Shown piece by piece: positions 243 to 25,560 of a stretch of 52,459 nucleotides of DNA. The notes beneath the pieces are model-generated. The model worked only from the letters and a program-made list of their open reading frames with translations. It ran no database searches and was not told the DNA's origin. The position numbers and the translations under genes are program-made. Numbering within the stretch: position 1 is the stretch's first letter; each line of letters starts with the position of its first letter. Origin of the DNA: a virus; the UHGV virus genome UHGV-0060500, one strand, 5' to 3'.

Positions 243-1433
243 ATGCTTACGGATACCAGGTTAAGGACTATTGCCAACAAGCCATATGACGGCCCAAGCG
301 AGATAGCTGATCGTGATGGCCTGTCAGCCAGGATAAGTCCAAAAGGGAAAATTACTTTCCAGTACCGTTACAGATTCAACGGTAAGCCAGTGCGAATGAA
401 GATCGGCGAGTACGGGAAAATGAGTCTGAAAGACGCCCGCTATGCGGTGGCTGAATACAGGGAGTTGCTTGCGAAAGGGAAGAATCCGGCACTGTGCGTA
501 AAGCAGGCCATAGCCTTTGAACAGGGCAAGAGATCGATAACAGACGTAGTGGAAGACTATCTATCCCTGCCGAACGTCATTAAGCTGGTGGCATATAAAG
601 AAGTCAAAAGCGCATTGATGCGCCATGTTGTCAACAAGTACGGCGACTACATAGCTGACGACGTAACGACAAAACAGTGGATGGATATATTTGGCGAGAT
701 CACTGCGGCGGGTCACGCGGTTACGGCTGGTTTGATATTGAAGCGAATGAAAATCATCGTTAACAGCGCAATCAGGCGCGGGCTAATGACTAACACGGCG
801 ATAAACAATATCCGTGTAGCTGACGTTGGCGAGCATTATGCGGTGGGGGAGCGTTACCTTTCATGTGAGGAGATAGGCCACTTCTGGCGCACGGTAGACA
901 GTTCGCAGATCTATCCGCAGAACAAAATAGCCTTAAAGCTATTATTGCTAACCGGGTGCAGGGTTGGTGAATTGCAGAAAATGAGAAGGGAACACCTAGA
1001 CCTGGACAACGGTGTGTGGACCGTTCCGGCGGCGGTGGCGAAGACAAGAAGTGAAATCAGGCGGGGATTATCTGACTTGTCGATAAAAATGCTCAGGGAG
1101 GTTTTAACCTCCCATGAGTATGATTATGTATTCCCGCCAGTGATTAACGGCGGCAACAGGCCAGTAAACGCATCAGTGATAAAAGTAGCTGCAATATTCG
1201 TGCGTAAAAGGATGGGCGGTAAATCATGGTCCTGTCACGACCTCCGCAGGACGTGCCGGACACACCTTTCAGCTATAGGTGTTCCGGTACATATTGCAGA
1301 AAAGGTCTTAGGCCATTCATTAAGGGGGATACTGGCGGTGTACGATAAATATGATTATCTTGATGAACAAAAGGAGGCACTAAATAAGTTTGCGGATTAT
1401 GTATTATCTTTGGCTGACGTTAAACCAATCTGA
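243..1433 (+). CDS. int: Tyrosine site-specific integrase (P4-like)
   Basis: 396 aa; N-terminal arm-binding-like region, C-terminal catalytic region with R...HDLRRT...H...Y pattern (CHDLRRTCRTHL, LGHS, VYDKYDY) typical of tyrosine recombinases. Confidence 0.85.
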   Translation: MLTDTRLRTIANKPYDGPSEIADRDGLSARISPKGKITFQYRYRFNGKPVRMKIGEYGKMSLKDARYAVAEYRELLAKGKNPALCVKQAIAFEQGKRSITDVVEDYLSLPNVIKLVAYKEVKSALMRHVVNKYGDYIADDVTTKQWMDIFGEITAAGHAVTAGLILKRMKIIVNSAIRRGLMTNTAINNIRVADVGEHYAVGERYLSCEEIGHFWRTVDSSQIYPQNKIALKLLLLTGCRVGELQKMRREHLDLDNGVWTVPAAVAKTRSEIRRGLSDLSIKMLREVLTSHEYDYVFPPVINGGNRPVNASVIKVAAIFVRKRMGGKSWSCHDLRRTCRTHLSAIGVPVHIAEKVLGHSLRGILAVYDKYDYLDEQKEALNKFADYVLSLADVKPI

Positions 1434-1627
1434 TCAAAGAACTGCATTACGTCCTGATAGCGGTACATAACGCCACGCCCGGTACCAAGTACATCAACAG
1501 GGGCCGGGAACGGAGTTCCGTTCCGTTCCCACTTTTTACGCCATAAATAAAACGTTCCCCTGCTAATTCCTCCCAGCATCCGGCAGATGGCAGGGCGACT
1601 AAGAAGAATTGTCCCGGTTTTATCCAT
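1397..1627 (-). CDS. AlpA-family phage transcriptional regulator / excisionase-like protein
   Basis: 76 aa; ICRMLGGISRGTFYLWRKK...RYQDVMQF resembles the AlpA/Xis HTH; convergent with and adjacent to int. Confidence 0.65.
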   Translation of the reverse strand: MDKTGTILLSRPAICRMLGGISRGTFYLWRKKWERNGTPFPAPVDVLGTGRGVMYRYQDVMQFFDQIGLTSAKDNT

Positions 1628-2286
1628 TATTCCCCCTTGTATTCAGTGAACGGGATATTGCCATCAATGATCTCGCAGGCCATGTTGCGATAATCATGCG
1701 ACCATTCGTTTTCATGATAAAAATCAATCTCTTTTGCCGCATCTTTACCAATAACGACAATAGCCAGAGATTTAGCTATTCTCCCCAACGCCTGGTTGCG
1801 CGGATCTATATACAGCTTGAAAGAGCATGTTTTCCATGATAGCGGCCTCTCGCCACCGCAATCTTCCTTGCTTTCACATATAGCCCATTTATCACCAACA
1901 TATTTAAATTTAACGACATCGAGAACCGTTCCGCTCGTAAGACCCACACAATCAAGCCATACATTAACAGGAGGTTTATCACCTGCGGCCCATTCCGTTT
2001 TTTCTGGTTGTGTTTCGCAGTCATGGCGTTCATCTTCGATTAATTCATCAATGATTTCACTTTCTTTATTCATGCCATCATCATCCTTATTAGATAAATT
2101 AGCGTATTTATCAAATTTCCAGCCCGCAGCCATAACAGAATAAGTGCCGCCAGTGTCAGCGCGAACACCCAATAAATAGTATGTTCCAAAATTATATTCT
2201 GTGCGGCATGTTGTTACCTCAAACGATGGGTAACACTCAGGGTTAGTGCGATGGCTAATCACACCGATTGCTTTTGATTTACTCAT
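1627..2286 (-). CDS. Hypothetical protein (219 aa)
   Basis: Long ORF in operon context on the minus strand; no motif recognised. Confidence 0.5.
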   Translation of the reverse strand: MSKSKAIGVISHRTNPECYPSFEVTTCRTEYNFGTYYLLGVRADTGGTYSVMAAGWKFDKYANLSNKDDDGMNKESEIIDELIEDERHDCETQPEKTEWAAGDKPPVNVWLDCVGLTSGTVLDVVKFKYVGDKWAICESKEDCGGERPLSWKTCSFKLYIDPRNQALGRIAKSLAIVVIGKDAAKEIDFYHENEWSHDYRNMACEIIDGNIPFTEYKGE

Positions 2287-2300
2287 TTGTTTATCCTCAA

Positions 2301-2477
2301 TTATGCCACTGGTACATCGTCAACTTTAATAAAATAATGTGGATGATTTCTAATATCTCTCAGGTAGTAGCATTGACACTCTCGCCACTCATTAGCCGCG
2401 CGATTAAGATAAAACACATTACCATTTTCTACCTTGTAATAAATCCCGGTCGGTTTAGCTTTAAAATACTCAACCAT
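2301..2477 (-). CDS. Hypothetical small protein (58 aa)
   Basis: ATG overlaps the NinB stop (TAATG); no recognised motif. Confidence 0.3.
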   Translation of the reverse strand: MVEYFKAKPTGIYYKVENGNVFYLNRAANEWRECQCYYLRDIRNHPHYFIKVDDVPVA

Positions 2478-2908
2478 TATTGCCCCCAGCGTTTTATGAA
2501 TTCCTCGTTTAATTTCGTATCACCCGACCATTGAACATCATGTTCAGCACCGAACGAGTAAATTAATTCGATTAGTTCACTGAATTCTGATTTACTCATT
2601 CGACTTGTAGATGTTCCCAATACAACGAAGCCGGATTTATCCAGATTAGGCACGACGCCATATTTTTTAAGCCCGGCGGTGAATACCGCTTTCCAGTCTT
2701 CCGGCGACAGCTTCTTACCGTACCAATTAACCTGATCACTAATGTCGGTTAGCAACGCCCATAGAAAGCTATTTTGGCTTAGCGAGCGGGTTTTCTCCTG
2801 GATGGTAATTATCAGCGGGCTTTTGCTATCAGGCTGGATCTCTCTTATCTGCCTGATAGCGTTTTCTTTTACGGCGTCGTTTACTATTTCAAATCTAATT
2901 TGCCTCAT
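2477..2908 (-). CDS. ninB: NinB-like recombination protein (Orf family)
   Basis: 143 aa; ITIQEKTRSLSQNSFLWALLTDISDQV...VVPNLDKSGFVVLGTSTSRMSKSEFSELIELI aligns closely with lambda NinB as recalled. Confidence 0.8.
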   Translation of the reverse strand: MRQIRFEIVNDAVKENAIRQIREIQPDSKSPLIITIQEKTRSLSQNSFLWALLTDISDQVNWYGKKLSPEDWKAVFTAGLKKYGVVPNLDKSGFVVLGTSTSRMSKSEFSELIELIYSFGAEHDVQWSGDTKLNEEFIKRWGQ

Positions 2909-3102
2909 AATACACCGTTACTGTTTTTCCACTGCGCCCGCGCATACATGATCGCCTGCAAAGAAATTAGACGTGAGCTTGTCATGAAAGCGCTTTTTAA
3001 GTATCTCATATCAACCACAACAGGTTTATCAGGATCGTCACCGCGCATGTATTCCGCAATAGTGCTAAAGTCTTCAATGGTTAAATCTAACTCCTTATTC
3101 AT
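2905..3102 (-). CDS. Hypothetical protein (65 aa)
   Basis: ORF with start/stop coupling to neighbours in the nin-like region. Confidence 0.4.
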   Translation of the reverse strand: MNKELDLTIEDFSTIAEYMRGDDPDKPVVVDMRYLKSAFMTSSRLISLQAIMYARAQWKNSNGVL

Positions 3103-3951: not shown

Positions 3952-5367
3952 TTAAAAAGATGCGTTGTTCTGGCTGTTTCGTGGGGAGAATCTACTTGCC
4001 GCCGGACGTTGTTGCATTGACTGAATGCAAGCGGACGCCGCGCGGGCCTGGTCGCATGGGATGATGTTGCCGTTATCGTCAAACCGCTGGTAAACAGTCC
4101 CCGTTTTCCCGTGACGGTTTTTTGAAACGATGATCTCCATATATTCGCGGGCAACCGATTGTTCGTTGTAGTAGCCGTCGCGGTAGACCATGATGATCCG
4201 GTCTGCGTCCTGCTCAAGATTACCGGAATCACGCAGATCAGAATTGTTCGGGCGCTTGTTCGGTCGTTCCTCAACGCGGCGGGATAATTGCGCCAGCGCC
4301 GCCACTGGCACGCGCAACTCTTTCGCCATCATTTTCAATGACCACGACAATTGCCCTACGGCGAGATCATGACGTTCGGCCTTAGCCAGCTTCATTAACC
4401 CGATGTAGTCAATCATTACCATCCCCAGGTTAGGATGGTCCTGTTTCATCCGTTCGACGGTGGCGCGTATTTCCTCGACCGTTAACTGCGATGCGTCAAC
4501 AATCCACACATCGAGATCGGCAAGGGCACTCATTCCCTGGGCGACGTGCGCCCAACCTTCGTCATCCAGTTTTACCGGATTACGTAGGCAATCCGTTGAT
4601 AAGTTCCCAGCGCCAGCGATAGCACGTTCAGTCATCTGATCGAGCGACATTTCAAGCGTGAACAGCAAAACGCCGACCCGCTGACCTTCGCCGCCAGGGT
4701 ATGGACGTTCAGCCGCCGCGCGGGCAATTGCCAACGCCAACGCCGATTTACCAGACCCTGGGCGTCCGGCGATAAGCACCAGATCAGTAGCATTAATGCC
4801 GCCTAACATTTCGTCGAGTGGGTCAATACCTGTTTTGATGTTGTCAGAGTTCACGCCACACTCCATGCGTTTACTTAGCACTTCCGTGTATTCCTGGACC
4901 GCATCGCGCAACAGCACCGGGATAATTTGATCTTTTGTTACCTTTAATTTTGAATACCGGGAATCAAAATCTTTCATCGTCTCTTTGACGACCTCAAGTG
5001 TCCCAGTTTCCAGTTTGTAGCGCATATCGTCGATGAGTTCCAACATCTGCCGCCGCTGGTGCTCTTCACGTAGTAGCTGTGCATATCCCTTCAGGTTGGC
5101 AGCAGAAGGGCACGATCGCGCCGTTTGCATTAGCGGTACAAAGTTTTCATTACCAATCTCATCACCAACCAGTAACGCGTCGATAAGATTTCTGTTTCTG
5201 GCTTGCGCCCGGATAATTTCAAAAGCCCGCTTATATAGCGGAATAGTGAATACTTCAGGATCGAGCGTAGCAAGAACGTCTTGCGCGTTAGGTGTAAGCC
5301 CGCCTAACAGGAGTCCGCCTATCACAGCAGACTCTCGTTCTTGTCGCAGTGAGTTAACAGAATCCAT
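3952..5367 (-). CDS. Replicative DNA helicase, DnaB family
   Basis: 471 aa; Walker A GRPGSGKSALALAIA, DnaB-like N-terminal and RecA-like C-terminal regions. Confidence 0.9.
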   Translation of the reverse strand: MDSVNSLRQERESAVIGGLLLGGLTPNAQDVLATLDPEVFTIPLYKRAFEIIRAQARNRNLIDALLVGDEIGNENFVPLMQTARSCPSAANLKGYAQLLREEHQRRQMLELIDDMRYKLETGTLEVVKETMKDFDSRYSKLKVTKDQIIPVLLRDAVQEYTEVLSKRMECGVNSDNIKTGIDPLDEMLGGINATDLVLIAGRPGSGKSALALAIARAAAERPYPGGEGQRVGVLLFTLEMSLDQMTERAIAGAGNLSTDCLRNPVKLDDEGWAHVAQGMSALADLDVWIVDASQLTVEEIRATVERMKQDHPNLGMVMIDYIGLMKLAKAERHDLAVGQLSWSLKMMAKELRVPVAALAQLSRRVEERPNKRPNNSDLRDSGNLEQDADRIIMVYRDGYYNEQSVAREYMEIIVSKNRHGKTGTVYQRFDDNGNIIPCDQARAASACIQSMQQRPAASRFSPRNSQNNASF

Positions 5368-5385: not shown

Positions 5386-6504
5386 TTACAAAATGGAATA
5401 TTCAGGGTAATAAACAAAGCGCCCGATTTCCCCGTGATCAGGACTGTAAATTATTACCGCCGCCAGACGCCGCGACCGCCAGCCGCCATTCGTTGAATAA
5501 GCGTCTTTGCCCGCTAACGTGCCGTGATACTCAACAACGCCTAACGATGATTCAATCAACCGTTGGTGGTGCCAGTGCCCGCAATGAGCATAAACCGCCG
5601 CAGACTTACCGAAATCTTCCCGCCAGTCAGAGACGCAGGCAGACAACAAATTTTCTGGTTTTTTGATGGTGTGTCCGTGGTGGTAAGCAAGGAATGTTTT
5701 GCCGTACTGTGTGTGGTGTACGATAGCAGGTGACACGTCAACCGTTACGCGCGGTTCATCTTCGTAAAAAGCCGCCAGCGCAGCACGTAGCCAAATCATC
5801 CCCGACTGATCGTGATTACCTGATAATACCTGGATTTCGATTTCTTTGTGGTTTAACAACATCTTTCCTACAGCACGGCGGACTGACCGGATCGCCACAT
5901 AAACAAGTTTTGCGTAGCGTGAATCGCAATCAAGTACGTGATTGCTTGATGGCGTCACTGGCAACAGCCCATCAGTGTGAAGAACATCCCCACCGAGAAG
6001 CAATACAGCTTTTTCAGACATCGGCGCTGCGCCTACCGCGTAGTCAAAGAAATCATTTAGCACGCGTTCAGCGATCCCGGTGTCGTAGCTCTCACCGCAT
6101 TCAGCTTTATGAGCAAGCGCCCCGATATGCAGATCGAATACCGGATAAAGGGCCAGGCTTTTTTGGAAATCAATTTCCGGCACTGGCACGGCCTCCGCGC
6201 GTGGCATGTCTTCCGTGAAAGCATCGCAAGCCGCTTGCATTAGCCTTTCCATTTCATCGCGATCACGGGCTGTTTTAATCCAGCGCATAATCACATTGCC
6301 ATCCTTATCGACGAGCAATGACTCACCATTGACGCCAAAGCCCGGCGCGCGACGCGTGGATATTAAACCGCGTTTCGCCAACCGTGCGCCCAGGCGTTCG
6401 ACGTTGCGTTTTGCCATTCCATATTCTTCTGCTATTTGCTTGTAAGTTTTCCCCTTGTTGTACTCGGCGATCAGTTCCTCATCGCTGATCTTTCTTTGTG
6501 ACAT
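5386..6504 (-). CDS. HTH domain protein fused to calcineurin-like metallophosphoesterase domain (replication-module protein)
   Basis: 372 aa; N-terminal HTH (TYKQIAEEYGMAKRNVERL); phosphoesterase motifs FDLHIG, GGDVLHTDG, SGNHDQ, GHWHH. Confidence 0.6.
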   Translation of the reverse strand: MSQRKISDEELIAEYNKGKTYKQIAEEYGMAKRNVERLGARLAKRGLISTRRAPGFGVNGESLLVDKDGNVIMRWIKTARDRDEMERLMQAACDAFTEDMPRAEAVPVPEIDFQKSLALYPVFDLHIGALAHKAECGESYDTGIAERVLNDFFDYAVGAAPMSEKAVLLLGGDVLHTDGLLPVTPSSNHVLDCDSRYAKLVYVAIRSVRRAVGKMLLNHKEIEIQVLSGNHDQSGMIWLRAALAAFYEDEPRVTVDVSPAIVHHTQYGKTFLAYHHGHTIKKPENLLSACVSDWREDFGKSAAVYAHCGHWHHQRLIESSLGVVEYHGTLAGKDAYSTNGGWRSRRLAAVIIYSPDHGEIGRFVYYPEYSIL

Positions 6505-6681
6505 AACGTTATTACCTCCGGTTCGCGGAATGAGTATTTATTCATAAATAACTAATTTTTATTAACATGGATTTCACGGTGTCAAAAAATGCCAGTAGGG
6601 TTAATCAACAACTTATGCAAATTGAAATAACCACTTAATGAATAACTAATCGTATACATTGCGGTTTACAATTTGTATACA

Positions 6682-7818
6682 TTAGGATATAGCACAACGG
6701 AAAAACTTGCACCCCAAATAATCTTCAATGCGTTTTTGTCTTATCGCATCGCTTTTTACTTGCCGTTTGTGATGTGACTCATCAATTTCTACAGCAACGT
6801 TATTCACAGGATCGTAGCCATCAATAAAATACTTATTGCCAGCAACATCAACAGGATATTGCCTTATTAATTTAACTCCTTTTAGTTTTTCATACATAGT
6901 TAAGCCAGCATGTTCATAACGCTTCCTAATCATATTTTTACAATTATCTCTCATTTCTGATAATTTCGAGTCGTACTCCTTTTTTATTTCTTCAATTACA
7001 TTTTTATCGCTTTTTAATTCAATAAAGTTTTCTATGTCGTTATAATTCCCGCATTCAAAATTATTATTAAGACCTTTATTTTCACCCCATGCATGATACT
7101 TTTCTGCTATCTTATCGCTAATATATCTTTCATACCCATAATTTGTTTTAACTATAAAATATTCAATATTTAAATCAATGGTAAACTCATCATTATTGAG
7201 GTGTTCAGTTAAAAACGCATCTGGATCTGCAATATCGCTTGAATGGAACAACCTTACCCATAGCTTTTCTATTGATACTCCGCGAGTGACGAACAACCAT
7301 TTTTTGTACTTTTCAGCATCTTCTTTTGACACATACACAGAACATCGCCCAGGAGTATCACTCGTTTCAACATAATTGTTACACCATAAAATATAATTAT
7401 AAGCATAAGGACTATCTTTTTTGGTGTTATTTGAATATGTATTAAAGATATCTTGCAAGTCAACTAATCCACAAGATTCAATAACTGGCTTAACCCATTT
7501 TTCATTATATTCATAATGTCTATATTTACCAGGTGTAACGAATCTAATAAACGTTATGGGTGTGATATACACATCATCACCATCAACAATAAAATCCTTG
7601 TATTCCTCAAATCCGTAAAGATCAGAGTATTTAACAAATGATTTAAGTCTATCAATTTCAAGTTCAGAAACCAGATTATTAACAGACAGTAATTGCGTGT
7701 CCTTACAATTGAGTTTCATATGATAAGTAGCAATCACATATACCTCCTTTATTAATTTTCTATATAACGCCTCAGACGCGCTACAACGCAAAAATCCCAC
7801 CGCGTAACCCGTTTGCAC
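6682..7818 (-). CDS. AT-rich moron protein with C-terminal PD-(D/E)xK (DUF559/Vsr-like) nuclease-like domain; true start probably 7720-7745
   Basis: Markedly lower GC than neighbours; C-terminus YPVDVAGNKYFIDGYDPVNNVAVEIDESHHKRQ...RQKRIEDYLGCKFFR fits the restriction-endonuclease-like fold pattern; strong SD AAGGAGG near 7750. Confidence 0.55.
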   Translation of the reverse strand: MQTGYAVGFLRCSASEALYRKLIKEVYVIATYHMKLNCKDTQLLSVNNLVSELEIDRLKSFVKYSDLYGFEEYKDFIVDGDDVYITPITFIRFVTPGKYRHYEYNEKWVKPVIESCGLVDLQDIFNTYSNNTKKDSPYAYNYILWCNNYVETSDTPGRCSVYVSKEDAEKYKKWLFVTRGVSIEKLWVRLFHSSDIADPDAFLTEHLNNDEFTIDLNIEYFIVKTNYGYERYISDKIAEKYHAWGENKGLNNNFECGNYNDIENFIELKSDKNVIEEIKKEYDSKLSEMRDNCKNMIRKRYEHAGLTMYEKLKGVKLIRQYPVDVAGNKYFIDGYDPVNNVAVEIDESHHKRQVKSDAIRQKRIEDYLGCKFFRCAIS

Positions 7819-9385: not shown

Positions 9386-9427
9386 ATTCTTTTCTCCTAT
9401 GGTTAGAGTGAACGCGCGGGCGGGCAT

Positions 9428-15540: not shown

Positions 15541-15544
15541 TCCT

Positions 15545-15778: not shown

Positions 15779-15787
15779 GGGGGCGTA

Positions 15788-18254: not shown

Positions 18255-18431
18255 ATGTCTTTTGATGATTACCAATGGCATGACGACTATGAAAGAGAAA
18301 GCGTCATGCGTGCAATGTGCAATGTATGCAGCACGAAGAAAGGAGGCTGTAACGAGTGCAACGAATGCTTAGAACATTGGCTAAGGGCCGGACACGCCGA
18401 AAGGCTGAACGAAACAGAGAATCAAAAATAA
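18255..18431 (+). CDS. Small Cys-rich protein (58 aa)
   Basis: MSFDDYQWHDDYERESVMRAMCNVCSTKKGGCNECNEC...; strong SD AAGGAGAGAG. Confidence 0.4.
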   Translation: MSFDDYQWHDDYERESVMRAMCNVCSTKKGGCNECNECLEHWLRAGHAERLNETENQK

Positions 18432-18445
18432 TCGGGGTGGTTTTT

Positions 18446-19051: not shown

Positions 19052-19455
19052 ATGAATATTCTTTTAGCCTGCCTTACCCGCCATCGAATAATCGCTATTA
19101 CCGACATTCGCGCGGTTTTCACTATATCAGCAAAGTGGGGAAGGAATACAGGGAACAAGTAAGAGACATCATCGAGCTATTAAATTTAAATATTAACCTA
19201 CCTTGCCGACTGGCAATTGCCATTTACGCCGCGCCGCCGGATAACCGGATCAGAGATCTGGATAATATCCCTAAATGCCTTTTTGACAGCCTTACTTATG
19301 CCGGATTCTGGAGGGATGACGGGCAAATCGACTCAATAAAAATTGTTCGCTGCCGGAAGGCAAAAGGCGGACGCTTGTTTATTAAGATCCGCGAACGCGG
19401 CGACCTACTACCGGATATTGACGAATACGCGACTAATATGTGGGGTGAGCAATGA
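19048..19455 (+). CDS. rusA: RusA-family Holliday junction resolvase
   Basis: 135 aa; LPYPPSNNRYYRHSRG...DLDNIPKCLFDSL...WRDDGQI matches the RusA pattern. Confidence 0.8.
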   Translation: MNEYSFSLPYPPSNNRYYRHSRGFHYISKVGKEYREQVRDIIELLNLNINLPCRLAIAIYAAPPDNRIRDLDNIPKCLFDSLTYAGFWRDDGQIDSIKIVRCRKAKGGRLFIKIRERGDLLPDIDEYATNMWGEQ

Positions 19456-19634
19456 AAAACGAAGTTAAAGATCTGCAAATAGATATTCAGCGCGACGAGC
19501 GTGATTTAGAGACGGTCCGACAAATCCAGGCTTTCCACATGCGCGAATTACTTGCGCTGAAAGAGTTCGAAAGAAAGCTGGTGCAATCCATTTCTGATCG
19601 TAAACGTCTGGCGGCACGTTATGAGGGCAAATAA
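19452..19634 (+). CDS. Hypothetical coiled-coil protein (60 aa)
   Basis: ORF coupled to rusA. Confidence 0.35.
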   Translation: MKNEVKDLQIDIQRDERDLETVRQIQAFHMRELLALKEFERKLVQSISDRKRLAARYEGK

Positions 19635-20362
19635 TGAATTTAGAATCCATTCTAAAATTCCACTTTCCTAAATCACCGCGATTATCTGACGAAAGCCGGG
19701 GCACGTCCCCGGACGCTCTTAATACGACGGATGCGCTAACCGCTGCGGGTATGGCGCAATCGCGCGTAGAGCTTGGATATAGCGCTTTTTTAGGGAAGAT
19801 GGAACTATCACAAGCCGAAAAACACAGGGCCGTAGTTTTGCTTACAGAGCGTTTAAGGGCTATGGCGAAAGATTACGAATACGTGATGGAGTTAAACGAG
19901 GCACAACGCAATGATCTTATTATTCTTGTTGCCGTTTTCGCATTTCGGGATTATTGCCAGAGTGCGGCGACCGAAAAAGTTTGCCCTAAGTGCGGCGGTC
20001 ACGGGCATTTACCAAATCCATATGGCGAATACACATCAACAATTTGCGCACGGTGCGGCGGCAAAGGCTACGTTAAAAACCATTGCCAACGTTGCAAGGG
20101 GCGCGGCGAAGTACCGGATAAAACAGCCAGCGAAGCGGCGGAAATGCCAGTATTCAAAACGTGCCAGCATTGCGGCGGGCGCGGGTACTCGCGTTACCCT
20201 GTAGATCTTGTCCGGCAGGCAGTTAATCAGCTTGTTTTCCCGGTGAGCCGATCAACATGGTGGAAGAAATACCGTGCTTTCTATGAAGACGCCATTGCTG
20301 AATTGTTCAAAGAAGAGGCGCGGGCTGACAACGAAATTAAACGAGTGACGCGGGGTGAATAA
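19634..20362 (+). CDS. Putative late-gene antiterminator Q-like protein with DnaJ-type CxxCxGxG zinc-finger repeats
   Basis: Four CxxCGG(H/K/R)G repeats (CPKCGGHG, CARCGGKG, CQRCKGRG, CQHCGGRG); position after ninG/rusA as in lambdoid phages; assignment is tentative. Confidence 0.4.
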   Translation: MNLESILKFHFPKSPRLSDESRGTSPDALNTTDALTAAGMAQSRVELGYSAFLGKMELSQAEKHRAVVLLTERLRAMAKDYEYVMELNEAQRNDLIILVAVFAFRDYCQSAATEKVCPKCGGHGHLPNPYGEYTSTICARCGGKGYVKNHCQRCKGRGEVPDKTASEAAEMPVFKTCQHCGGRGYSRYPVDLVRQAVNQLVFPVSRSTWWKKYRAFYEDAIAELFKEEARADNEIKRVTRGE

Positions 20363-20565
20363 TGGATAAGTTAGAAATAAACGATCAGTTTGCCGTTATC
20401 TTGTTCGAAGATAAAACAGGCGGCGCATGGTGTAAGAAAGTCACTGGCGCAGAAGCGCGTTTGGTGTTGGGTATGGCAAGCGCGTTAAATGAAGGTGAAT
20501 TGCCAGCCGTACCTATTGAGCCTGTTCACATTTACGGGAGGAATAGAGAAGATGAAAATAATTAA
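20362..20565 (+). CDS. Hypothetical protein (67 aa)
   Basis: ORF. Confidence 0.35.
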   Translation: MDKLEINDQFAVILFEDKTGGAWCKKVTGAEARLVLGMASALNEGELPAVPIEPVHIYGRNREDENN

Positions 20566-20899
20566 TATCGGGTGGTTATATTGCAAAAACTGCGACGACG
20601 ACGGCATGGTTGTTAAGACTGAAAAAGGTTGCGGCTTCTTTTTGTATCAAGGCGATAAGTTTGTTTGTCCGCGATGCGGTGGTCATGGTGAGATAGAAAT
20701 TATTGAAGATAATGCTACAGCACCAGAGCCGGAGCGCATTGTTCTTGACGAAAAAATAAAAATTCATCCTGATTTATTGCAGCAAATTATCGATCACATA
20801 TCGGCAGCAGCAATCTATGCAGATAATAATTATCATCGTGAAATGAACGTAAAACGTGTTCTTGAGCAGTATTTCGAGGGTGGTGATAATGAAGCCTAA
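20552..20899 (+). CDS. Small zinc-ribbon protein (about 115 aa)
   Basis: CKNCDDDG...CPRCGGHG pair of CxxC motifs; SD GGGAGG. Confidence 0.4.
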   Translation: MKIINIGWLYCKNCDDDGMVVKTEKGCGFFLYQGDKFVCPRCGGHGEIEIIEDNATAPEPERIVLDEKIKIHPDLLQQIIDHISAAAIYADNNYHREMNVKRVLEQYFEGGDNEA

Positions 20900-21158
20900 A
20901 TTAAAAGAACATGAATTTAGGGATCTTGTAAACGGAATAACTGATAAGACCAGGACGTACTCAAATACACAACAATTAAGGGCGATGATAATTACGGAAT
21001 TAAGGAAATACATTGAGCCAGGCGGGCCAGGCGACGAAATGACTATGGACAAGGCCATCAAGCGCCGTTCGGCTGATTGGTCAGTCAGTAACACTGGATT
21101 AACCGGATACATCGAAGGCTATAACGACTGTTTACAGGATCATAGCAATGGCAAATAA
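20889..21158 (+). CDS. Hypothetical protein (about 89 aa)
   Basis: ORF; SD GAGGGTGGTGA. Confidence 0.35.
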   Translation: MKPKLKEHEFRDLVNGITDKTRTYSNTQQLRAMIITELRKYIEPGGPGDEMTMDKAIKRRSADWSVSNTGLTGYIEGYNDCLQDHSNGK

Positions 21159-21447
21159 ACACTTACATTTAAATTTAAAAGGGGAATACTTTCACGCTAT
21201 CCGGGCGGGAAAGAAGGTGGAGGAATACCGGCTTTATAATGACTATTGGCGTAAACGCCTGGAAGGGCGGGAATACACAAGATTAATCATCAAATGGGGA
21301 TACCCGGCTAACGACGAGAAGGAACGAATACTGATTCTTCCTTATATGGGGTACACAATCAAGACAATTCAGCATCCTTTATTTGGTGACGATCCTGTTA
21401 AAGTTTTTGCTATCAAATGCGATATTTATTGGCAATATAGGTTTTAG
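21148..21447 (+). CDS. ASCH/DUF3850-like PUA-fold protein
   Basis: HLNLKGEYFHAIRAGKKVEEYRLYNDYW...LIIKWGY resembles ASCH-domain proteins. Confidence 0.4.
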   Translation: MANKHLHLNLKGEYFHAIRAGKKVEEYRLYNDYWRKRLEGREYTRLIIKWGYPANDEKERILILPYMGYTIKTIQHPLFGDDPVKVFAIKCDIYWQYRF

Positions 21448-21450
21448 AAT

Positions 21451-21663
21451 ATGAAAAGTAACCGTAAACGCCTTGTAAGGGCATACGACAAAGCATTAAA
21501 GGCTTTTGATGATCTGCGACGCAATAAGCGCCAGCGCCGCAAATGGGCGCGAATGCTTGTTAGTGAATGGCATAACGAAGATTTCTTTCTGGAAGCGCGG
21601 CACATGACGCAAGAAGACGCGGATCAATTAGCTTACGATAACGTTTACTATATGATGTGGTGA
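21451..21663 (+). CDS. Hypothetical protein (70 aa)
   Basis: ORF. Confidence 0.35.
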   Translation: MKSNRKRLVRAYDKALKAFDDLRRNKRQRRKWARMLVSEWHNEDFFLEARHMTQEDADQLAYDNVYYMMW

Positions 21664-21667
21664 TAAT

Positions 21668-22033
21668 ATGCAGATAATCATTGATTACCTTTGCCACGCT
21701 GCAAATACAATTTTCGGTATGTATCAACAACCGTTTCTCAAAGAATGGGATGATATGCTAAACGACATCCTCGACAAAGGATTAATAATGGAGGTTGACG
21801 AGCTTACAATCAGATTTAATTATGAAGGTGAAGAATATCTAATTTGGGTGGGTAATAGATGGTATTCATACGGTCATATTTATTCAATTGGTGGTAAGTT
21901 CATTAAAAGAAACCAGGAATTCAGACCGCGCTTCCGCACTATGCGCCGCCTGCATGATCTGCATATAAAGCTATTCGAAGATCAGGAAGCGCGGGAATTA
22001 TTCAAAATTTACGGGGATAAATCATGGAGCTAA
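21668..22033 (+). CDS. Hypothetical protein (121 aa)
   Basis: ORF. Confidence 0.4.
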   Translation: MQIIIDYLCHAANTIFGMYQQPFLKEWDDMLNDILDKGLIMEVDELTIRFNYEGEEYLIWVGNRWYSYGHIYSIGGKFIKRNQEFRPRFRTMRRLHDLHIKLFEDQEARELFKIYGDKSWS

Positions 22034-22254
22034 AAATCTGGCAGGCTATCGACGTTGTTGATAACGAATTGTCTATGTTCGCCACTAACGGGAAACGCGT
22101 TGTGATCGCTACATGGACACGTAACCATGATGATATTGCTTTTCGTCGCGCTGCGGCGGAATTGCTTTTCTCTGATGGCGGCTACACGATGAACATCGCA
22201 CAGCTTGCCAGAATGAAAGATGAAAAGCTGGTGGACAGCTACACAACTGCGTAA
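22024..22254 (+). CDS. Hypothetical protein (76 aa)
   Basis: ORF. Confidence 0.35.
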   Translation: MELKIWQAIDVVDNELSMFATNGKRVVIATWTRNHDDIAFRRAAAELLFSDGGYTMNIAQLARMKDEKLVDSYTTA

Positions 22255-22264
22255 CGGGGTAAAT

Positions 22265-22498
22265 ATGCGTATCTATGAACACAAGCGGGATAAAACCCGC
22301 TTTTTTGTTCGTGCTGGCGTGGCGTACCAGTATCACGAATGCGGTTACATTGAGGCGCTAGCCTACGATCTGGATTTCGAACAGGAAAAAGCATGGTTCG
22401 ATTTTAAAATTTACCGGAAGCGCAAACCAACGCGCGACGAGCGACACGCTATCCGTGACTTTTTAATCAGTATTGAGCGCTGGGAGACAGAGGAATGA
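22265..22498 (+). CDS. Hypothetical protein (about 77 aa)
   Basis: ORF. Confidence 0.35.
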   Translation: MRIYEHKRDKTRFFVRAGVAYQYHECGYIEALAYDLDFEQEKAWFDFKIYRKRKPTRDERHAIRDFLISIERWETEE

Positions 22499-22722
22499 AG
22501 GTAAAATTCTTGCACGATCACGGTTATCCGTCACTGAAACAGGTTGTTGGTAAGGTGGTTAATGTCGTTCATGGCGATGATGTCACTTGCATGATTAACG
22601 GTGCTGATTTAATCGCCGCTGGCGCTGATGGCCATTACATAAATCCGGCATGGTCGTATACGTTCAGCCTGGGCGACTTCGTTGGCGATAAGGGGCGCGG
22701 GCTGGAAGTAGTCGAGGGTTAA
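22495..22722 (+). CDS. Hypothetical protein (75 aa)
   Basis: ORF. Confidence 0.35.
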   Translation: MKVKFLHDHGYPSLKQVVGKVVNVVHGDDVTCMINGADLIAAGADGHYINPAWSYTFSLGDFVGDKGRGLEVVEG

Positions 22723-22726
22723 CATC

Positions 22727-22975
22727 ATGGACGTTTACGAAGATCTATACCTCCAGACAAACACCCGCACTTTTTATTTTCTGAAAAACGGCGTCGTATA
22801 TCGCAGCGACGACGGGGTAATAATGAAGGAGTGGTTATTTAAGCGTAAAGACCTACTCGACGATTTGGTTTTTGCCGGAATATTTCGTAAACGTCCGGCT
22901 AACCTGGAAGAAGAAATGTTGATTGAGGTTATTAAAAATGAAAATCAGGGTAAGTTATTTCCGGGCGAAAGATAA
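22727..22975 (+). CDS. Hypothetical protein (82 aa)
   Basis: ORF. Confidence 0.35.
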   Translation: MDVYEDLYLQTNTRTFYFLKNGVVYRSDDGVIMKEWLFKRKDLLDDLVFAGIFRKRPANLEEEMLIEVIKNENQGKLFPGER

Positions 22976-23189
22976 GGCAACAGGAAAGCAGATGGCGATC
23001 CTGGTTAACGAGGCCAATTACATGTTTGTGCTTCAGCCGTGGTGTATAGCTGACTATAACGATGATTATCGCCGTCACGCGGCGCGGAGTGCGGTCGGGA
23101 TGAAAGGGTGGCAACCGCGCGACATGGAAAATTATTGCGACTGGAAACTGATTGCTAAATATACGGTTAATTATAAAGGGGTTTTCTGA
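22938..23189 (+). CDS. Hypothetical protein (about 83 aa)
   Basis: ORF; SD GAGGT. Confidence 0.35.
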   Translation: MKIRVSYFRAKDKATGKQMAILVNEANYMFVLQPWCIADYNDDYRRHAARSAVGMKGWQPRDMENYCDWKLIAKYTVNYKGVF

Positions 23190-23191
23190 TT

Positions 23192-23407
23192 ATGTTTGCA
23201 AGATGTGTTTATTCTGACACTACGTGCTTTACTACTGGCGAACTATATAGCGTTGATCTTCTTAATGGGTGCAAGCGCGGCGCTGGCCGGATTTATTATG
23301 TAAAAGATAATGATGGTGATGCGTGGCAATTTTACGGCGAGCATGCGAAAGGGGTTGTTAAGAGTAGTTTTGATAATCGTGTAATGGCGCATTTTGTTAA
23401 GTGGTGA
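23192..23407 (+). CDS. Hypothetical protein (71 aa)
   Basis: ORF. Confidence 0.35.
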   Translation: MFARCVYSDTTCFTTGELYSVDLLNGCKRGAGRIYYVKDNDGDAWQFYGEHAKGVVKSSFDNRVMAHFVKW

Positions 23408-23521
23408 GGTGTTGGACAACCATAAATGTGATCTGTATCACAATGTATACGAAATGGCATTGTTCCGGCAGTGCCGTTTTGTTATATATGAGCCACAGAA
23501 AGACGGAGGGGAGGCAAGAAG

Positions 23522-23662
23522 ATGAACGCAAACGCAAAATATCCTGCCTGGGTGTTTGAGTTATATGCCAGATACTTCGAACTACTGGCACCAGGTGAAG
23601 AAGCATTAAGCATTGACGAATACGCGGAGTGTCTGGGGTTCAAAGGAGGCAAAGAAGGATAA
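23522..23662 (+). CDS. Hypothetical small protein (46 aa)
   Basis: ATG with SD GACGGAGGGG upstream. Confidence 0.3.
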   Translation: MNANAKYPAWVFELYARYFELLAPGEEALSIDEYAECLGFKGGKEG

Positions 23663-23706
23663 AGCACGGGGTCGGATGGCCCCCATCAAACCAGAAGGGT
23701 TGAATT

Positions 23707-24006
23707 ATGAAAAGCGATAAATTCATAGCGTGCTGTTTTGTTGAAGTGCCTAAAGGTGATGTTTTCTGTAATTACGAATTTAAAGACAGTTTAGGCCGAT
23801 CTCATGTTGTTGTTGGTAAGCGCGGTGACTGGTTATATATAACAGACGACGACATGATTTTTACCAGAAATCAACTATTTCACATCAACTCGGTAAATAA
23901 TTATGCGCCAGTTGCCGCTATATCCATGATGGATCTTAAATCTAATATGTGGCTTGAAAAGGACACTGTGCATAAAGCGCGTAGCTTACCTGGTGCGGAG
24001 TTTTAA
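23707..24006 (+). CDS. Hypothetical protein (99 aa)
   Basis: ORF. Confidence 0.4.
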   Translation: MKSDKFIACCFVEVPKGDVFCNYEFKDSLGRSHVVVGKRGDWLYITDDDMIFTRNQLFHINSVNNYAPVAAISMMDLKSNMWLEKDTVHKARSLPGAEF

Positions 24007-24008
24007 TT

Positions 24009-24266
24009 ATGGTTGTGTTCAGGCTGTGGCGCGGCAATAGCATACTCGATGGCGAGTACAGCCGCGTGATTGAAGATGTTAATCGCGGGCGTTTTTATGA
24101 ACTGGCATACAGGGAGGCAATGGAGAACACCTATTTTGATGAGTCAATCCCTATGTGGCGGAAGATGTCTGGCGAAATAGCTTTCGCAATGCGCCACGGG
24201 TTTTATACAGATCATAACACGCTAATTGATGCCGAACTGGTGACAATTCTTTACGAAGGAGAATAA
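24009..24266 (+). CDS. Hypothetical protein (85 aa)
   Basis: ORF. Confidence 0.35.
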   Translation: MVVFRLWRGNSILDGEYSRVIEDVNRGRFYELAYREAMENTYFDESIPMWRKMSGEIAFAMRHGFYTDHNTLIDAELVTILYEGE

Positions 24267-24269
24267 CAA

Positions 24270-24593
24270 ATGTCTAAATTTATCAGCGTTAAGGTTTTCC
24301 GTGGCACTATTCCAGAAGATAAAAAATATGGACAATTCGCCGGACAACCTGGCGCATGTTTCCGTGTAGCCACTGACGACGAAGTTAGTGTCAAATGCTT
24401 CCATGTAGCTGAACCGCCTTTTGACGTGAAAGACCTTGATAATGCAGATCACGTTAAACATTTTGTTTTCGCATCGGTAGTGCTTAATCCTTGCCCTGAT
24501 GCTGAAGTGGAATTGCTTGGGGCTGAACTGGTTGCAGAATACCAAATGACTGAAGGAGAAAACGGAGGGATTGAAATTGAGCGCATCAAGTAA
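24270..24593 (+). CDS. Hypothetical protein (107 aa)
   Basis: ORF. Confidence 0.4.
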   Translation: MSKFISVKVFRGTIPEDKKYGQFAGQPGACFRVATDDEVSVKCFHVAEPPFDVKDLDNADHVKHFVFASVVLNPCPDAEVELLGAELVAEYQMTEGENGGIEIERIK

Positions 24594-24822
24594 GCTATAC
24601 AAGATCAGGTGTAAAGGCGAATATCCTGGCTTTACGATTGGTTGCGAATACATGGGCCACATTGGGTACGGCCCTTTCGGTGAATTAGGGATGAATACGC
24701 TGGACGACGACGGCGACAGCAGGACGCTTGATCTTGATTCTGATGATTTCGAATACATCCCGCCGATAACTTACCGCGACGTTGATGATTTCATGGCTGA
24801 ACATGACGACGAGGACGATTAA
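24571..24822 (+). CDS. Hypothetical acidic protein (83 aa)
   Basis: ORF with Asp-rich C-terminus. Confidence 0.35.
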   Translation: MKLSASSKLYKIRCKGEYPGFTIGCEYMGHIGYGPFGELGMNTLDDDGDSRTLDLDSDDFEYIPPITYRDVDDFMAEHDDEDD

Positions 24823-24954
24823 ATGGAAGAGTGGTATAAAAATTTATTAATCATGTTTCTTTCTGAAAATTGGGCGCTATTTGAGCGTTTTTGCGAGGAA
24901 CATGGTGAAGACCCTAACGATATTTATCACGATCTTGGTGGTGAAGATGACTGA
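24823..24954 (+). CDS. Hypothetical small protein (43 aa)
   Basis: ATG immediately after the upstream stop. Confidence 0.3.
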   Translation: MEEWYKNLLIMFLSENWALFERFCEEHGEDPNDIYHDLGGEDD

Positions 24955-25144
24955 ATGCCTTATTGTTGCGGTAGTTATAATTTACCTGGCTGGTGTCATT
25001 TTAATGGGCGCTTTTCAGAAGGCTGTTGATAGTGACGGCGTTATTTGGTTCGAGCTAGTCTTCTGGCCTTTCATTACGATATACGCATTCAGTGATGCTA
25101 TGCGTATTAACATCATGCGAGCCATTAAGGAGCGCAAAAAATGA
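24947..25144 (+). CDS. Small membrane protein (about 65 aa)
   Basis: MTECLIVAVVIIYLAGVILMGAF...; two hydrophobic helices. Confidence 0.35.
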   Translation: MTECLIVAVVIIYLAGVILMGAFQKAVDSDGVIWFELVFWPFITIYAFSDAMRINIMRAIKERKK

Positions 25145-25323
25145 TTGAAGATGGGGTGTACGCAGCAACAGTAGTCGACGGGTTGTTTTACCGCGTGGAA
25201 GGTGATGATATTCGTATCCGTGTTGGCGGTGGCGAGTGGGTAGCGCCAATCATTAAGACGACGCGAGAAACAATTAAAATATTTCTTGATGCTGGTGAAC
25301 TGGTAAAGGTTAGCGACCTATGA
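25141..25323 (+). CDS. Hypothetical protein (60 aa), paralogue of the next ORF
   Basis: MIEDGVYAATVVDGLFYRVEG... shares the IEDG.Y pattern with the ORF at 25320. Confidence 0.35.
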   Translation: MIEDGVYAATVVDGLFYRVEGDDIRIRVGGGEWVAPIIKTTRETIKIFLDAGELVKVSDL

Positions 25324-25496
25324 ACGAGATCGAAGATGGCATCTATTTGCATAAGGTATTTGACATCGCCTATTTGGTAAGAGGCGAAGAGGTGATGATA
25401 AGGAATGAAGATGTTCCTTATTGGGAATTAAGCGACATGGATCGCGAACACATGCAAACATTGCTTGATAACGGACTGATATACAGAACTGCGTAA
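25320..25496 (+). CDS. Hypothetical protein (58 aa), paralogue of the previous ORF
   Basis: MNEIEDGIYLHKVFDIAYLVRGEE...; ATGA overlap with the upstream stop. Confidence 0.35.
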   Translation: MNEIEDGIYLHKVFDIAYLVRGEEVMIRNEDVPYWELSDMDREHMQTLLDNGLIYRTA

Positions 25497-25560
25497 AGCC
25501 GTATTTGTGGGTCGAAAACAAACAGATTAAAATATTACCTAACAATGCGAAACTGTAACT

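Follow-up and report, generated by a model that had tools for sequence, protein, structure and literature searches.

Early region of a mEp021-type prophage at dgcM probably follows the standard architecture of its clade

The window analysed here, the whole 52,459-nt stretch of the UHGV virus genome UHGV-0060500, is most probably (a likelihood of about 80%) the left 52 kb of a mEpimmI (mEp021-type) prophage inserted at the dgcM (ydaM) 5′ end; its early region is then of the standard type inherited in that clade. The early-region layout is fixed throughout the group and its sister lineage, and is therefore not a one-off mosaic but ordinary for the phages to which it belongs.

Results

In 2025, mEpimmI was introduced as a family-level, "Nus-dependent non-lambdoid" clade that has a proteomic branch to itself and comprises 48 genomes with 'high synteny' and a conserved architecture; its archetype is Enterobacteria phage mEp021 (MH706966) (Negrete-Mendez et al. 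2025; PMC11893012). In synteny comparisons, seven phage records and no fewer than 21 complete E. coli genomes proved colinear with the window on one strand. These seven were the only matches in a DNA comparison covering 50,697 phage records: mEp554, mEp010, mEp044, mEp021, mEp515 and mEp013 covered 77–91% of the window at 86–90% DNA identity, and MagusPhagus covered 55% of its first half and 87% of its second. Beyond trivial matches of 36–74 nt, no DNA segment in these records was common to the window and any non-mEp phage, and exchange with lambdoid phages was not found at the DNA level. The complete E. coli genomes each carried at least 80% of window positions 1–25000 in a single place; relatives were surveyed chiefly in this species, and coverage outside it is thin. 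The window is identical to no record, its best match being E. coli strain M15 (92% identity over 91% of the query). Against mEp021 it aligned in local colinear blocks, with homology beginning at position 172, and gene order and strands are the same in the mEp021 and M15 annotations. A further 41 IMG/VR contigs (mostly 47–57 kb, range ∼13–77 kb) encode NinB at 94–99% identity, in most cases near the contig end.

Group-specific features point the same way. The commonest integration site in mEpimmI is ydaM, with abgT and mppA also used, and four integrase types occur (PMC11893012). The window has a tyrosine integrase gene at 243 and starts inside the dgcM (ydaM) 5′ end; base 1 corresponds to position 12001 of the M15 locus (L003), within the dgcM CDS, which ends at locus position 12058. 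Its predicted repressor is of the Rep021 type (HTH + S24, 95% identical over 215 aa to that of mEp021), and the immunity-I repressor is ∼96% similar across mEpimmI (PMC11893012). The window also encodes a predicted N-like Gp17 with the conserved arginines and has three putative boxA elements at the reported nut positions.

Pfam and PHROGs profile matches identified the following genes at the left end and on the leftward arm:

1–242, no strand: host dgcM (ydaM) 5′ end and attL region upstream of int, by alignment
243–1433, plus: tyrosine integrase Int (PF00589, 1e-20; Arm-DNA-bind_3, 2e-20)
1397–1627, minus: small HTH protein encoded last in the leftward operon (HTH_23, 2e-6; phrog_4745, DNA-binding protein)
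2477–2908, minus: NinB/Orf recombination mediator (PF05772, 1e-45; 53% identical to NinB of the P22-type phage ST104)
3952–5367, minus: DnaB-type replicative helicase, P22 gp12 homologue (DnaB_C, 1e-75)
5386–6504, minus: metallophosphoesterase or 'DNA repair exonuclease' that has an HTH at its N-terminus, encoded between the O and DnaB genes (phrog_704, 9e-137)
6682–7818, minus: low-GC accessory ORF in a variable slot, C-terminus Vsr/DUF559-like (DUF559, 2e-4; PvuRts1I-like, 1e-3)
8126–9133, minus: O-like replication initiator (HTH_36, 5e-15; many 'replication initiation O-like' PHROGs)
9233–9427, minus: gp14 homologue, a small wHTH protein and first gene of the leftward operon, in the Cro position (mEp021 alignment; phrog_4617, 5e-8)

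The O-like, helicase and NinB genes thus lie on the minus strand and run from the cI-like gene towards int, as the initial annotation had stated. Int points inward, convergent with the leftward operon, and has the same position and strand in mEp021, M15 and the sister lineage; it shares only 24% identity over 141 aa with P22-type Int. From its position, we infer that the neighbouring HTH protein is an excisionase (Xis-like); a 56% identical homologue occupies the matching place in the sister lineage. A Ren-like match lies between NinB and the helicase. DnaB is 56–57% identical to P22-like gp12, and in a large protein database no homologue fell between 57% and 89% identity. The phosphoesterase is 71% identical to that of the sister lineage, and proteins from Salmonella phage ST44 and from the Escherichia phages damhaus, egaa, aaroes and Fulano1 match it at 66–71% identity. 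Since its closest relatives outside the clade are in virulent phages, T1-type ones among them, the replication arm is not purely P22-like. The accessory ORF lies in a region of 34% GC and matches PADLOC mREase_II (1.5e-8). The O-like protein resembles P22-type gp18 at the C-terminus only (29% identity), and its gene contains three or four copies of a ∼21–23 bp repeat, GGTGACTCTGTGACACTACC, at 8729–8839, iterons that are presumed to be the origin. The gp14 homologue is a wHTH protein paralogous to the initiator N-terminus rather than a Cro/HTH_3 protein, and is shortened by a TTA-to-TAA change; mEp021, M15 and the relative L045 encode the intact 81-aa form.

The immunity region and the signals around it comprise:

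9428–9690, no strand: divergent control region, with a 61-bp imperfect palindrome (9600–9660) and the boxA of nutL (9514–9526, minus)
9691–10338, plus: cI-type repressor, Rep021 homologue (HTH_3 + Peptidase_S24)
10344–10545, plus: post-cI terminator (10344–10361), promoter (10462–10490) and nutR1 boxA (10533–10545)
18097–18254, plus: junction where the PL-type arm meets the distal nin genes, with a terminator-like hairpin and the nutR2 boxA (18194–18206)

Along its whole length, the repressor shares 39% identity with P22 C2. A boxA occurs at 9514–9526 (minus; the exact sequence GCTCTTTAAAAAT), 10533–10545 (plus) and 18194–18206 (plus), that is, at the start of both early operons and once more just before ninF. 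These positions match nutL, reported upstream of the repressor gene, and nutR1 and nutR2, also mapped in mEp021 (PMC11893012). The 10462–10490 promoter is the only strong sigma-70-like promoter in 9–26 kb (the sole site scoring 10/12), and the motif GTATACAAAATGGA adjoins its −35 hexamer, as it does in the sister lineage. The predicted terminator, promoter and nutR1 after cI are topologically the tIMM-PL-nutL arrangement of lambda. At the 18097–18254 junction, where nutR2 and terminator t4 are reported at the equivalent position in mEp021 (PMC11893012), the dispersed motif is present in two inverted copies, and a further strong terminator lies at 25561–25579. GC skew switches sign at ∼9 kb, as expected for divergent transcription. 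Of the components of cI/Cro-type immunity with N and Q antitermination, the window has cI, N-like and Q homologues and boxA elements; its Cro position is occupied by the initiator-paralogous wHTH protein.

On the rightward arm we found:

10839–11129, plus: N-like antiterminator Gp17 (phrog_271, 1e-13)
11276–11920, plus: Erf (ERF, 7e-42; 53% identical to P22 Erf)
11920–12324, plus: SSB (1.5e-23)
12340–12618, plus: Abc2 (phrog_656, 2e-32)
12631–18095, plus: accessory early genes with colinear homologues in the sister lineage
15788–16327, plus: Dam (2.5e-51)
17313–18095, plus: second methylase (phrog_757, 2e-87)
18255–18431, plus: NinF-like, first in the 18255–20362 block
∼18458–19051, plus: NinG (1e-66; 52% identical to lambda and P22 NinG, lambda 52.6%)
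19048–19455, plus: RusA (4.5e-15)
19634–20362, plus: Q antiterminator (PF03589, Antiterm, 5e-31; 37.5% identical to ST104 gp23)
20362–25570, plus: small ORFs filling the ∼5 kb from Q to the lysis genes, variable among relatives and closed by the strong terminator at 25561–25579
25571–26754, plus: lysis cassette of holin, lysozyme and Rz (Pfam; 48%, 62% and 32% identity, respectively, with their ST104 counterparts)
28165–51167, plus: morphogenesis genes, beginning with TerS and ending with the J tail-tip protein (Sf6_terminase, Terminase_6C, Phage_portal_3, DUF6260 capsid, TMP_3, GpJ)

These assignments also bear out the claim that the N-like, erf, ssb, methylase, ninG, rusA and Q-like genes follow cI on the plus strand and continue into lysis and structural genes. 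Gp17 is 93% identical to mEp021 Gp17 and has R17, R19, R20, R21 and R24; arginines 17, 19, 20 and 24 are conserved in mEpimmI (PMC11893012), and its antitermination function is cited there as shown experimentally by others. The functions given here to the repressor and the nut elements likewise come from published work. The Erf-SSB-Abc2 module (11276–12618) follows the order of the P22 PL operon. A 60-aa ORF is also present in the NinF-NinG-RusA-Q block (18255–20362), and the ORF at 21148–21447 is 62% identical to an ST104 ASCH 'ea-region' gene. The morphogenesis genes are co-oriented with the cI-side operon and colinear with those of the mEp phages; no close lambdoid relatives of them were seen in the phage-record DNA comparison.

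Together, this layout suggests two divergent early operons around a P22-C2-like repressor gene, both of which would be under N-type antitermination. The leftward (Cro-side) operon would comprise nutL, the small wHTH gene, the O-like initiator with its iteron origin, the phosphoesterase, DnaB, NinB and the Xis-like HTH gene, and would dead-end against the inward int. The rightward (cI-side) operon probably starts from the promoter just past the cI terminator, i.e. in the position of lambda PL, and would run through nutR1, Gp17, Erf-SSB-Abc2, the accessory genes, nutR2 and NinF-NinG-RusA-Q into lysis and morphogenesis. With this layout, the switch to late genes would run via the topological equivalent of the lambda PL operon, and replication would lie on an arm separate from that switch.

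The same frame is kept in an uncultured sister lineage, represented by Logan contigs of ∼52 kb from SRR16327189/198/202 and SRR23253289/295/395. Its proteins share only 28–71% identity with those of the window (DnaB 57%, cI 55%, Int 45%, NinG ∼60%, being 62% for the matched protein and 58.5% by tblastn). From int to portal, order and orientation are nevertheless the same gene for gene, through the replication arm, cI, N-like, Erf, SSB, Dam, NinG, RusA, Q, lysis and terminase genes. Where the window has gp14 and the O-like initiator, however, this lineage has a Cro-like HTH_3 gene and a gene for an unrelated protein of 291 aa.

Discussion

Outside the clade, the closest matches are to P22-like or lambda genes, at 37–57% identity (C2 39%, Erf 53%, NinB 53%, gp12 57%, NinG 52%, Q 37%), and in their own genomes these genes stand in canonical order. 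Pairwise matches to P22 itself were weak for Abc2 (32% over 37 aa), N (E 0.017) and NinF (E 0.005). P22, according to its annotated record, has the order int xis ... abc2 erf ... 24 c2, cro 18 12 ninB ... ninF ninG 23 lysis. Against this order the layout is indeed non-canonical and NinB is separated from NinG and RusA, as the initial annotation had noted. The window departs from the lambdoid module order (int-xis-recombination-N-cI, cro-replication-nin-Q-lysis-morphogenesis) in that the abc2-to-ninB block is inverted. If P22 genes are numbered 1–14 (int, abc2, erf, N, cI, O, dnaB, ninB, ninF, ninG, Q, holin, lysozyme, Rz), the window reads −1, −8...−2, +9...+14. P22 order could be converted to that of the window by one inversion of abc2-erf-N-cI/cro-O-dnaB-ninB, together with a replaced or reversed int module. 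The int reversal needs a second event besides the block inversion. We infer that the layout arose by inversion in a lambdoid-type ancestor; this includes the direction of change, which is not readable from the data, and the mEp order could be the older.

An old, separate arrangement that drew its genes singly from the lambdoid pool and never passed through an inverted lambda-like ancestor is unlikely. It would accord with the proteomic branch of mEpimmI's own (PMC11893012), with morphogenesis genes that have no close lambdoid relatives, with the presence of some of its gene families (phosphoesterase, DUF7274, Dam and PNKP) in virulent T1-type phages as well, and with the finding of neither canonical-order intermediates nor breakpoint remnants among the relatives examined. 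However, the leftward arm is in P22 order (Cro position, O, helicase, Ren-like match, NinB), as is the rightward arm (N, Erf, Abc2, accessory genes), followed by NinF, NinG, Q and lysis in lambda order, and piecemeal capture is not expected to yield both arm orders.

The initial annotation had instead read the layout as a mosaic of different module sources. A recent patching of the genome from different phages' modules, leaving NinB and the replication genes the 'wrong' way round, would fit several observations: slots at 6518–7763, 8647–9390, 20366–22011 and 23192–25300 vary among the window, mEp021 and M15, the NinB of L045 has a swapped C-terminal half, the phosphoesterase is shared with virulent phages, and integrases are of four types. 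Gene-level mosaicism therefore exists, but inside a fixed frame. All relatives examined, the divergent sister lineage included, have the same overall order, the 48 mEpimmI genomes are reported as highly syntenic (PMC11893012), P22-type homologues of both arms are similarly diverged (∼37–57%), and the 50,697 records gave no DNA match to non-mEp phages beyond 36–74 nt. This conserved synteny largely refutes a recent mosaic, to which we assign a very low probability. The arrangement essentially proved to be the common order of a known group, the finding that the initial annotation had named as counting against its reading, although mEpimmI is recent rather than well known. A strain-specific rearrangement or assembly artefact, to which the unusual orientation and the nonsense codon of the gp14 homologue (a copy that may be slightly decayed) might point, was rejected as having a negligible probability, because the same order occurs in virion-sequenced phages (mEp021 and five others), at least 21 complete chromosomes and dozens of metagenomic contigs.

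Comparison with known phages

As a probable mEpimmI prophage, the window resembles mEp021 in whole-genome colinearity and in the orientation of every early gene. It differs in the slot between O and the phosphoesterase, which contains a DUF559 ORF in place of the zinc-ribbon gene of mEp021, in lacking the HNH gene and extra methylase of mEp021, and in the premature stop of its gp14 homologue.

With the P22-like Lederbergvirus phages (P22, ST104, BTP1), it shares gene order inside each early operon, homologous C2, Erf, NinB, gp12, NinG, Q, lysozyme and holin, predicted N-type antitermination with boxA in the leaders, and iterons within the initiator gene. In contrast to these phages, abc2...ninB is inverted in the window, so that the cI/N side leads on to the nin-distal genes, Q and the late genes, and the replication arm ends at int, which is reversed and of a different subfamily. 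The window also has a second nut site before ninF and an extra phosphoesterase between O and DnaB. Its genes indicate a siphovirus virion with unrelated morphogenesis genes, and no DNA-level similarity to these phages was found.

Crosses with a lambda tester gave no viable progeny or hybrids (Kameyama 1999, as cited in PMC11893012). The likeness to lambda lies in cI and its terminator, followed on one side by a strong early promoter, nut and N, with a divergent promoter to replication on the other side, and in the predicted cascade from N through terminators to Q. Unlike lambda, the window has a DnaB-type helicase rather than P and Erf/SSB rather than Red recombination, and the distal contents of its two early operons are swapped.

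Gene content and strand layout

ORF listing and profile searches upheld every gene call of the initial annotation on its stated strand. The replication genes and NinB lie on the minus strand and run from the immunity region towards int, and the N-like, erf, ssb, methylase, ninG, rusA and Q genes lie on the plus strand and continue into the lysis and structural genes.

Features of the window, in order (nt)
243-1433, plus: tyrosine integrase
1397-1627, minus: HTH protein in the Xis position
between this gene and NinB, minus: two hypothetical genes
2477-2908, minus: NinB
between NinB and DnaB, minus: a few small genes, among them one weakly similar to Ren-like/MarR proteins
3952-5367, minus: DnaB
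5386-6504, minus: metallophosphoesterase
6682-7818, minus: low-GC accessory ORF
8126-9133, minus: O-like initiator
9233-9427, minus: small wHTH gene (gp14 homologue)
9691-10338, plus: cI
10839-11129, plus: N-like Gp17
after Gp17, plus, in this order: Erf, SSB, Abc2, about a dozen small genes, Dam, second methylase
then, plus: NinF-like, NinG, RusA and Q (Q at 19634-20362)
20362-25570: block of ~5 kb with roughly 20 small ORFs, from Q to holin
25571-26754, plus: holin, lysozyme, Rz
after the lysis genes, plus: terminase, portal, capsid, tape measure, J

The O-like gene contains three or four iterons of 21-23 bp (8729-8839), and the sign of the GC skew reverses at ~9 kb. In lambda, the late promoter and terminator come directly after Q. 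Within the Q-holin block of the window, an ASCH 'ea-region' gene that adjoins xis in the P22-like phage ST104 has a 62% identical counterpart, the ORF at 21148-21447. Further downstream, the J/tail-tip gene has six diverged repeats with 108-bp spacing (49221-50065) and an ORF in the portal-capsid interval (32565-33893) has three 21-bp tandem repeats (33595-33675), probably repeated structural domains in both cases. Two minus-strand genes inside the tail-gene cluster (38465-39509), one of them VasI-like (PF11319), may represent a moron expressed during lysogeny, like the exclusion lipoprotein reported from the mEpimmI group.

The layout is the norm of the mEpimmI group and of a deeper lineage

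When both halves of the window were compared with 50,697 phage records by megablast, only seven genomes matched (mEp554, mEp010, mEp044, mEp021, mEp515, mEp013 and MagusPhagus), all colinear on one strand at 86-90% identity; non-mEp phages gave nothing beyond trivial matches of 36-74 nt. At least 80% of positions 1-25000 was found in a single place and on one strand in 21 of 5,426 complete E. coli genomes, the closest being strain M15 (92% identity), and the annotations of mEp021 and M15 have the gene set and strands of the window. A further 41 IMG/VR contigs, mostly 47-57 kb, encode a NinB 94-99% identical to that of the window, mostly near the contig end. One seemingly divergent NinB match (L045) proved to be an ordinary group member in which the C-terminal half of NinB is swapped. 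Compared with mEp021, identity is 95% for the repressor ORF and 93% for Gp17, which keeps the conserved arginines. The window opens, at base 1, within the 5′ end of dgcM (ydaM), where phages of this group most often integrate (PMC11893012). DNA colinearity and gene matches therefore make the window a new member of mEpimmI, with no match above 92% identity in the collections searched. The 48 mEpimmI genomes described by Negrete-Mendez et al. 2025 show "conserved genome architecture" and "high synteny", and a new family has been proposed for these phages (PMC11893012). An assembly artefact or strain-specific inversion was ruled out, because the order is identical in virion-derived genomes and many chromosomes.

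In a database of 5.8 billion proteins, DnaB homologues were either 89-97% identical (E. coli, mEpimmI group) or at most 57%. Metagenomic contigs (46.6 and 52.5 kb) encode a 57% homologue (P0006), with SSB, ERF, an N-like gene and cI on one strand and, on the divergent strand, a Cro-like HTH_3 gene, a 291-aa protein, phosphoesterase, DnaB, small genes, NinB and a Xis-like gene, followed by a convergent integrase and then tail genes. A NinG homologue ~60% identical (P0127) was listed in 30 blocks of the collection, 12 of them with contigs >50 kb, and 24 contigs were examined. These contigs cover the remaining half of the genome, from cI, N-like, ERF, SSB and Abc2-like through accessory genes, Dam, methylase, NinF-like, NinG, RusA and Q to a stretch of small ORFs, then holin, lysozyme and Rz, and finally TerS, TerL and portal. 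Window proteins matched this sister lineage colinearly in both halves at 28-71% identity (tblastn). Given this gene-for-gene match in a diverged lineage, the layout is older than the mEpimmI cluster and stably inherited; a recently described phage group and a deeper sister lineage both have it as their usual arrangement. The sister-lineage genomes (L051-L053 and L055-L058, Logan metagenome, ~52 kb) differ from the window in their Cro-like HTH_3 gene and initiator, and have a HAD/PNKP gene between Q and lysis. Three scans, with the sister DnaB and a phosphoesterase alignment, did not find the lineage in IMG/VR or species-representative genomes, a weak negative because the back-translated patterns were few and poor.

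Local replacements within an invariant frame

The initial annotation had read the early region as a non-canonical layout assembled from different module sources. The non-canonical layout stands and a recent mosaic is not supported, as the frame is invariant in the group and the sister lineage. The window does have local replacements inside this frame, with nothing pointing to the frame itself as a recent assembly. Its differences from mEp021 and M15 lie at 2900-2908, 5401-5410, 6518-7763, 8647-9390, 12153-12346, 20366-22011 and 23192-25300; the first two are places where mEp021 has insertions, one a methylase gene and one an HNH gene.

Between the O-like and phosphoesterase genes, a variable slot holds the ORF at 6682-7818 (minus, ~34% GC), a candidate defence or moron gene: its last ~65 aa are similar to the fold of Vsr/DUF559 and methyl-directed restriction endonucleases (PADLOC mREase_II, 1.5e-8). 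The same slot encodes a zinc-ribbon protein in mEp021 and a different 267-aa protein in L045. Four DnaB relatives (P0002, P0003, P0005 and P0114) are 797-821 aa long compared with 471 aa in the window and 97% identical over the aligned parts, and one of them has a LAGLIDADG domain, which suggests intein-containing alleles in some mEpimmI members.

Among the early proteins of the clade, the phosphoesterase is conserved best, with 71% identity to its sister-lineage counterpart, and some mEpimmI prophages have an allele just ~60% identical. Homologues with 66-71% identity are also encoded by Salmonella phage ST44 and by the Escherichia phages damhaus, egaa, aaroes and Fulano1. As a marker of distant same-layout relatives the phosphoesterase failed: searches reached another mEpimmI prophage, and also virulent phages (ST44 and one known from a metagenomic contig with a T1-type holin) whose layouts are quite different from that of the window. 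It is a horizontally shared gene and not an architecture marker, and its distribution points to exchange between temperate and virulent phages.

A dispersed motif, GT(T/A)TACAAAATGG, occurs 10-14 times in the window compared with ~1 expected (sites at 5384, 9605, 10448, 14527/14551, 18097/18162, 23445, 39556/39584, 42172 and 42561/42635). A role as marker of mosaic breakpoints is not supported: among ~9 sites in the first 28 kb, only two (5387 and 23448) coincide with breakpoints relative to mEp021 or M15. Copies are nearly always intergenic, often form inverted pairs and are kept at equivalent sites in mEp021 and M15; the motif was not found in ST104. In the window and the sister lineage alike, one copy adjoins the -35 hexamer of the early promoter; several copies adjoin TGTGA-N6-TCACA (CRP-like) palindromes, and a perfect inverted pair, TACAAAATGG-N16-CCATTTTGTA, lies at 39556-39594, upstream of the minus-strand genes at 38465-39509. 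An operator and a promoter element are both possibilities.

A proposed single reversal relating the window to P22-type phages

For the early and lysis proteins listed here, the closest relatives outside the clade were P22-like or lambda proteins.

Closest relatives outside the clade (amino acid identity)
DnaB: P22-type gp12, 56-57%
NinB: ST104 NinB, 53%
Erf: P22 Erf, 53%, full length
cI: P22 C2, 39%, full length, with a shared C-terminal motif
NinG: lambda and P22-like NinG, 52%
Q: ST104 gp23, 37.5%
lysozyme: ST104, 62%
holin: ST104, 48%

For Abc2, N and NinF, likeness to P22-type proteins is at the level of family or short motifs only. The whole-genome comparison was made with ST104 (L054), together with pairwise comparisons. 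Numbering markers in P22 prophage order (1 int, 2 abc2, 3 erf, 4 N, 5 cI, 6 O, 7 dnaB, 8 ninB, 9 ninF, 10 ninG, 11 Q, 12-14 lysis), the window reads -1, -8, -7, -6, -5, -4, -3, -2, +9 ... +14. A single reversal of markers 2-8 therefore turns the P22 order into that of the window, int excepted; the inward-pointing window integrase belongs to another subfamily than P22-type Int (24% identity over 141 aa). Reversal as one block would explain why each arm keeps P22's internal order and, with one breakpoint inside the nin region, why NinB (minus strand, 2477-2908) is parted from the plus-strand NinF, NinG and RusA, a separation that the initial annotation had noted correctly. The canonical order is found in P22, ST104 and the nearest Salmonella and Xenorhabdus NinG contexts. 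Since it is far more widespread, parsimony leads us to infer that the layout arose by inversion of a lambdoid-type ancestor, and not by the reverse change or by independent assembly.

Probable regulation of the early operons

For mEpimmI, published work reports a repressor that is functional, Gp17 as antiterminator and three nut sites, and we take Gp17 function, Nus dependence and repressor function from it (PMC11893012); promoter assignments are putative and come from consensus scans. A strong terminator ends cI (10344-10361), and is followed by a promoter-like site (10462-10490, the sole 10/12 score within 9-26 kb), a boxA (10533-10545) and the N-like gene, the topology of lambda tIMM-PL-nutL-N. 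The cI-gp14 intergenic region contains an imperfect 61-bp palindrome (9600-9660), and the leftward leader an exact boxA, GCTCTTTAAAAAT, at 9514-9526. This 13-mer recurs with four more identical bases at 18194-18206, in the short interval that separates a terminator-like hairpin, 3′ of the methylase gene, from ninF. The three boxA places coincide with nutL, nutR1 and nutR2, at the positions published for the group (PMC11893012). Candidate terminators on the rightward transcript lie at 12870, 15152/15330 and ~18140, all upstream of Q, so the early transcript must pass several to reach it. A strong terminator upstream of the holin gene (25561-25579) is the likely target of Q. A separate leftward operon would serve the replication genes, the origin and the Xis-like gene.

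In the gp14 homologue, which opens the leftward operon at the Cro position, a TTA-to-TAA change cuts the 81-aa wHTH protein to ~50 aa (MYYV start), before the recognition helix; since gp14 is intact in mEp021, M15 and L045, the prophage copy may be impaired in lytic development. The repressor keeps the Ser and Lys protease motifs and, in alignment (residues ~93-103), has KDTV where P22 C2 has SAGQ. RecA-dependent cleavage of C2 takes place at Ala94-Gly95. Most mEpimmI phages are reported not to be UV-inducible, to which a repressor without the Ala-Gly site could relate.

A tentative inversion model

We propose, with a probability of about one in four, that the mEp021-type clade is lambdoid-derived, its developmental cascade rewired by one inversion of the promoter-proximal early region as a whole, which would also bar recombination. 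After such an inversion the PL-type operon would drive Q and the late genes, and replication would be left on a dead-end arm. Single crossovers with canonical lambdoid phages would yield inviable genomes. A barrier of this kind would account for gene families held in common with P22 and lambda in the absence of recent shared DNA, and for the 'non-lambdoid' behaviour of mEp phages in crosses; if true, it would in effect be chromosomal speciation in temperate phages. In the text of the group description (PMC11893012) we found no reading of the early region as flipped and no mention of inversion, rearrangement or orientation, and our literature search found no earlier account of the inversion, leading only to a paper on Chi sites in lambdoid phages that is not relevant (PMC12315714).

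For annotation, the region should be treated as a standard mEpimmI early region and not as a scrambled lambdoid prophage. The group offers a test case for how far a lambda-type regulatory cascade tolerates a swap of PL and PR cargo, and for whether an inversion can cut off a phage lineage from the gene pool of lambdoid phages. What we add is to read the norm explicitly as a putative P22-type early layout in which a single block has been inverted, with a nut site where the new junction lies. On this reading, the "non-lambdoid" mEpimmI phages have a P22-type early gene set with both operon heads flipped as a single block, and a second nut site at the new junction, upstream of ninF-ninG-rusA-Q.
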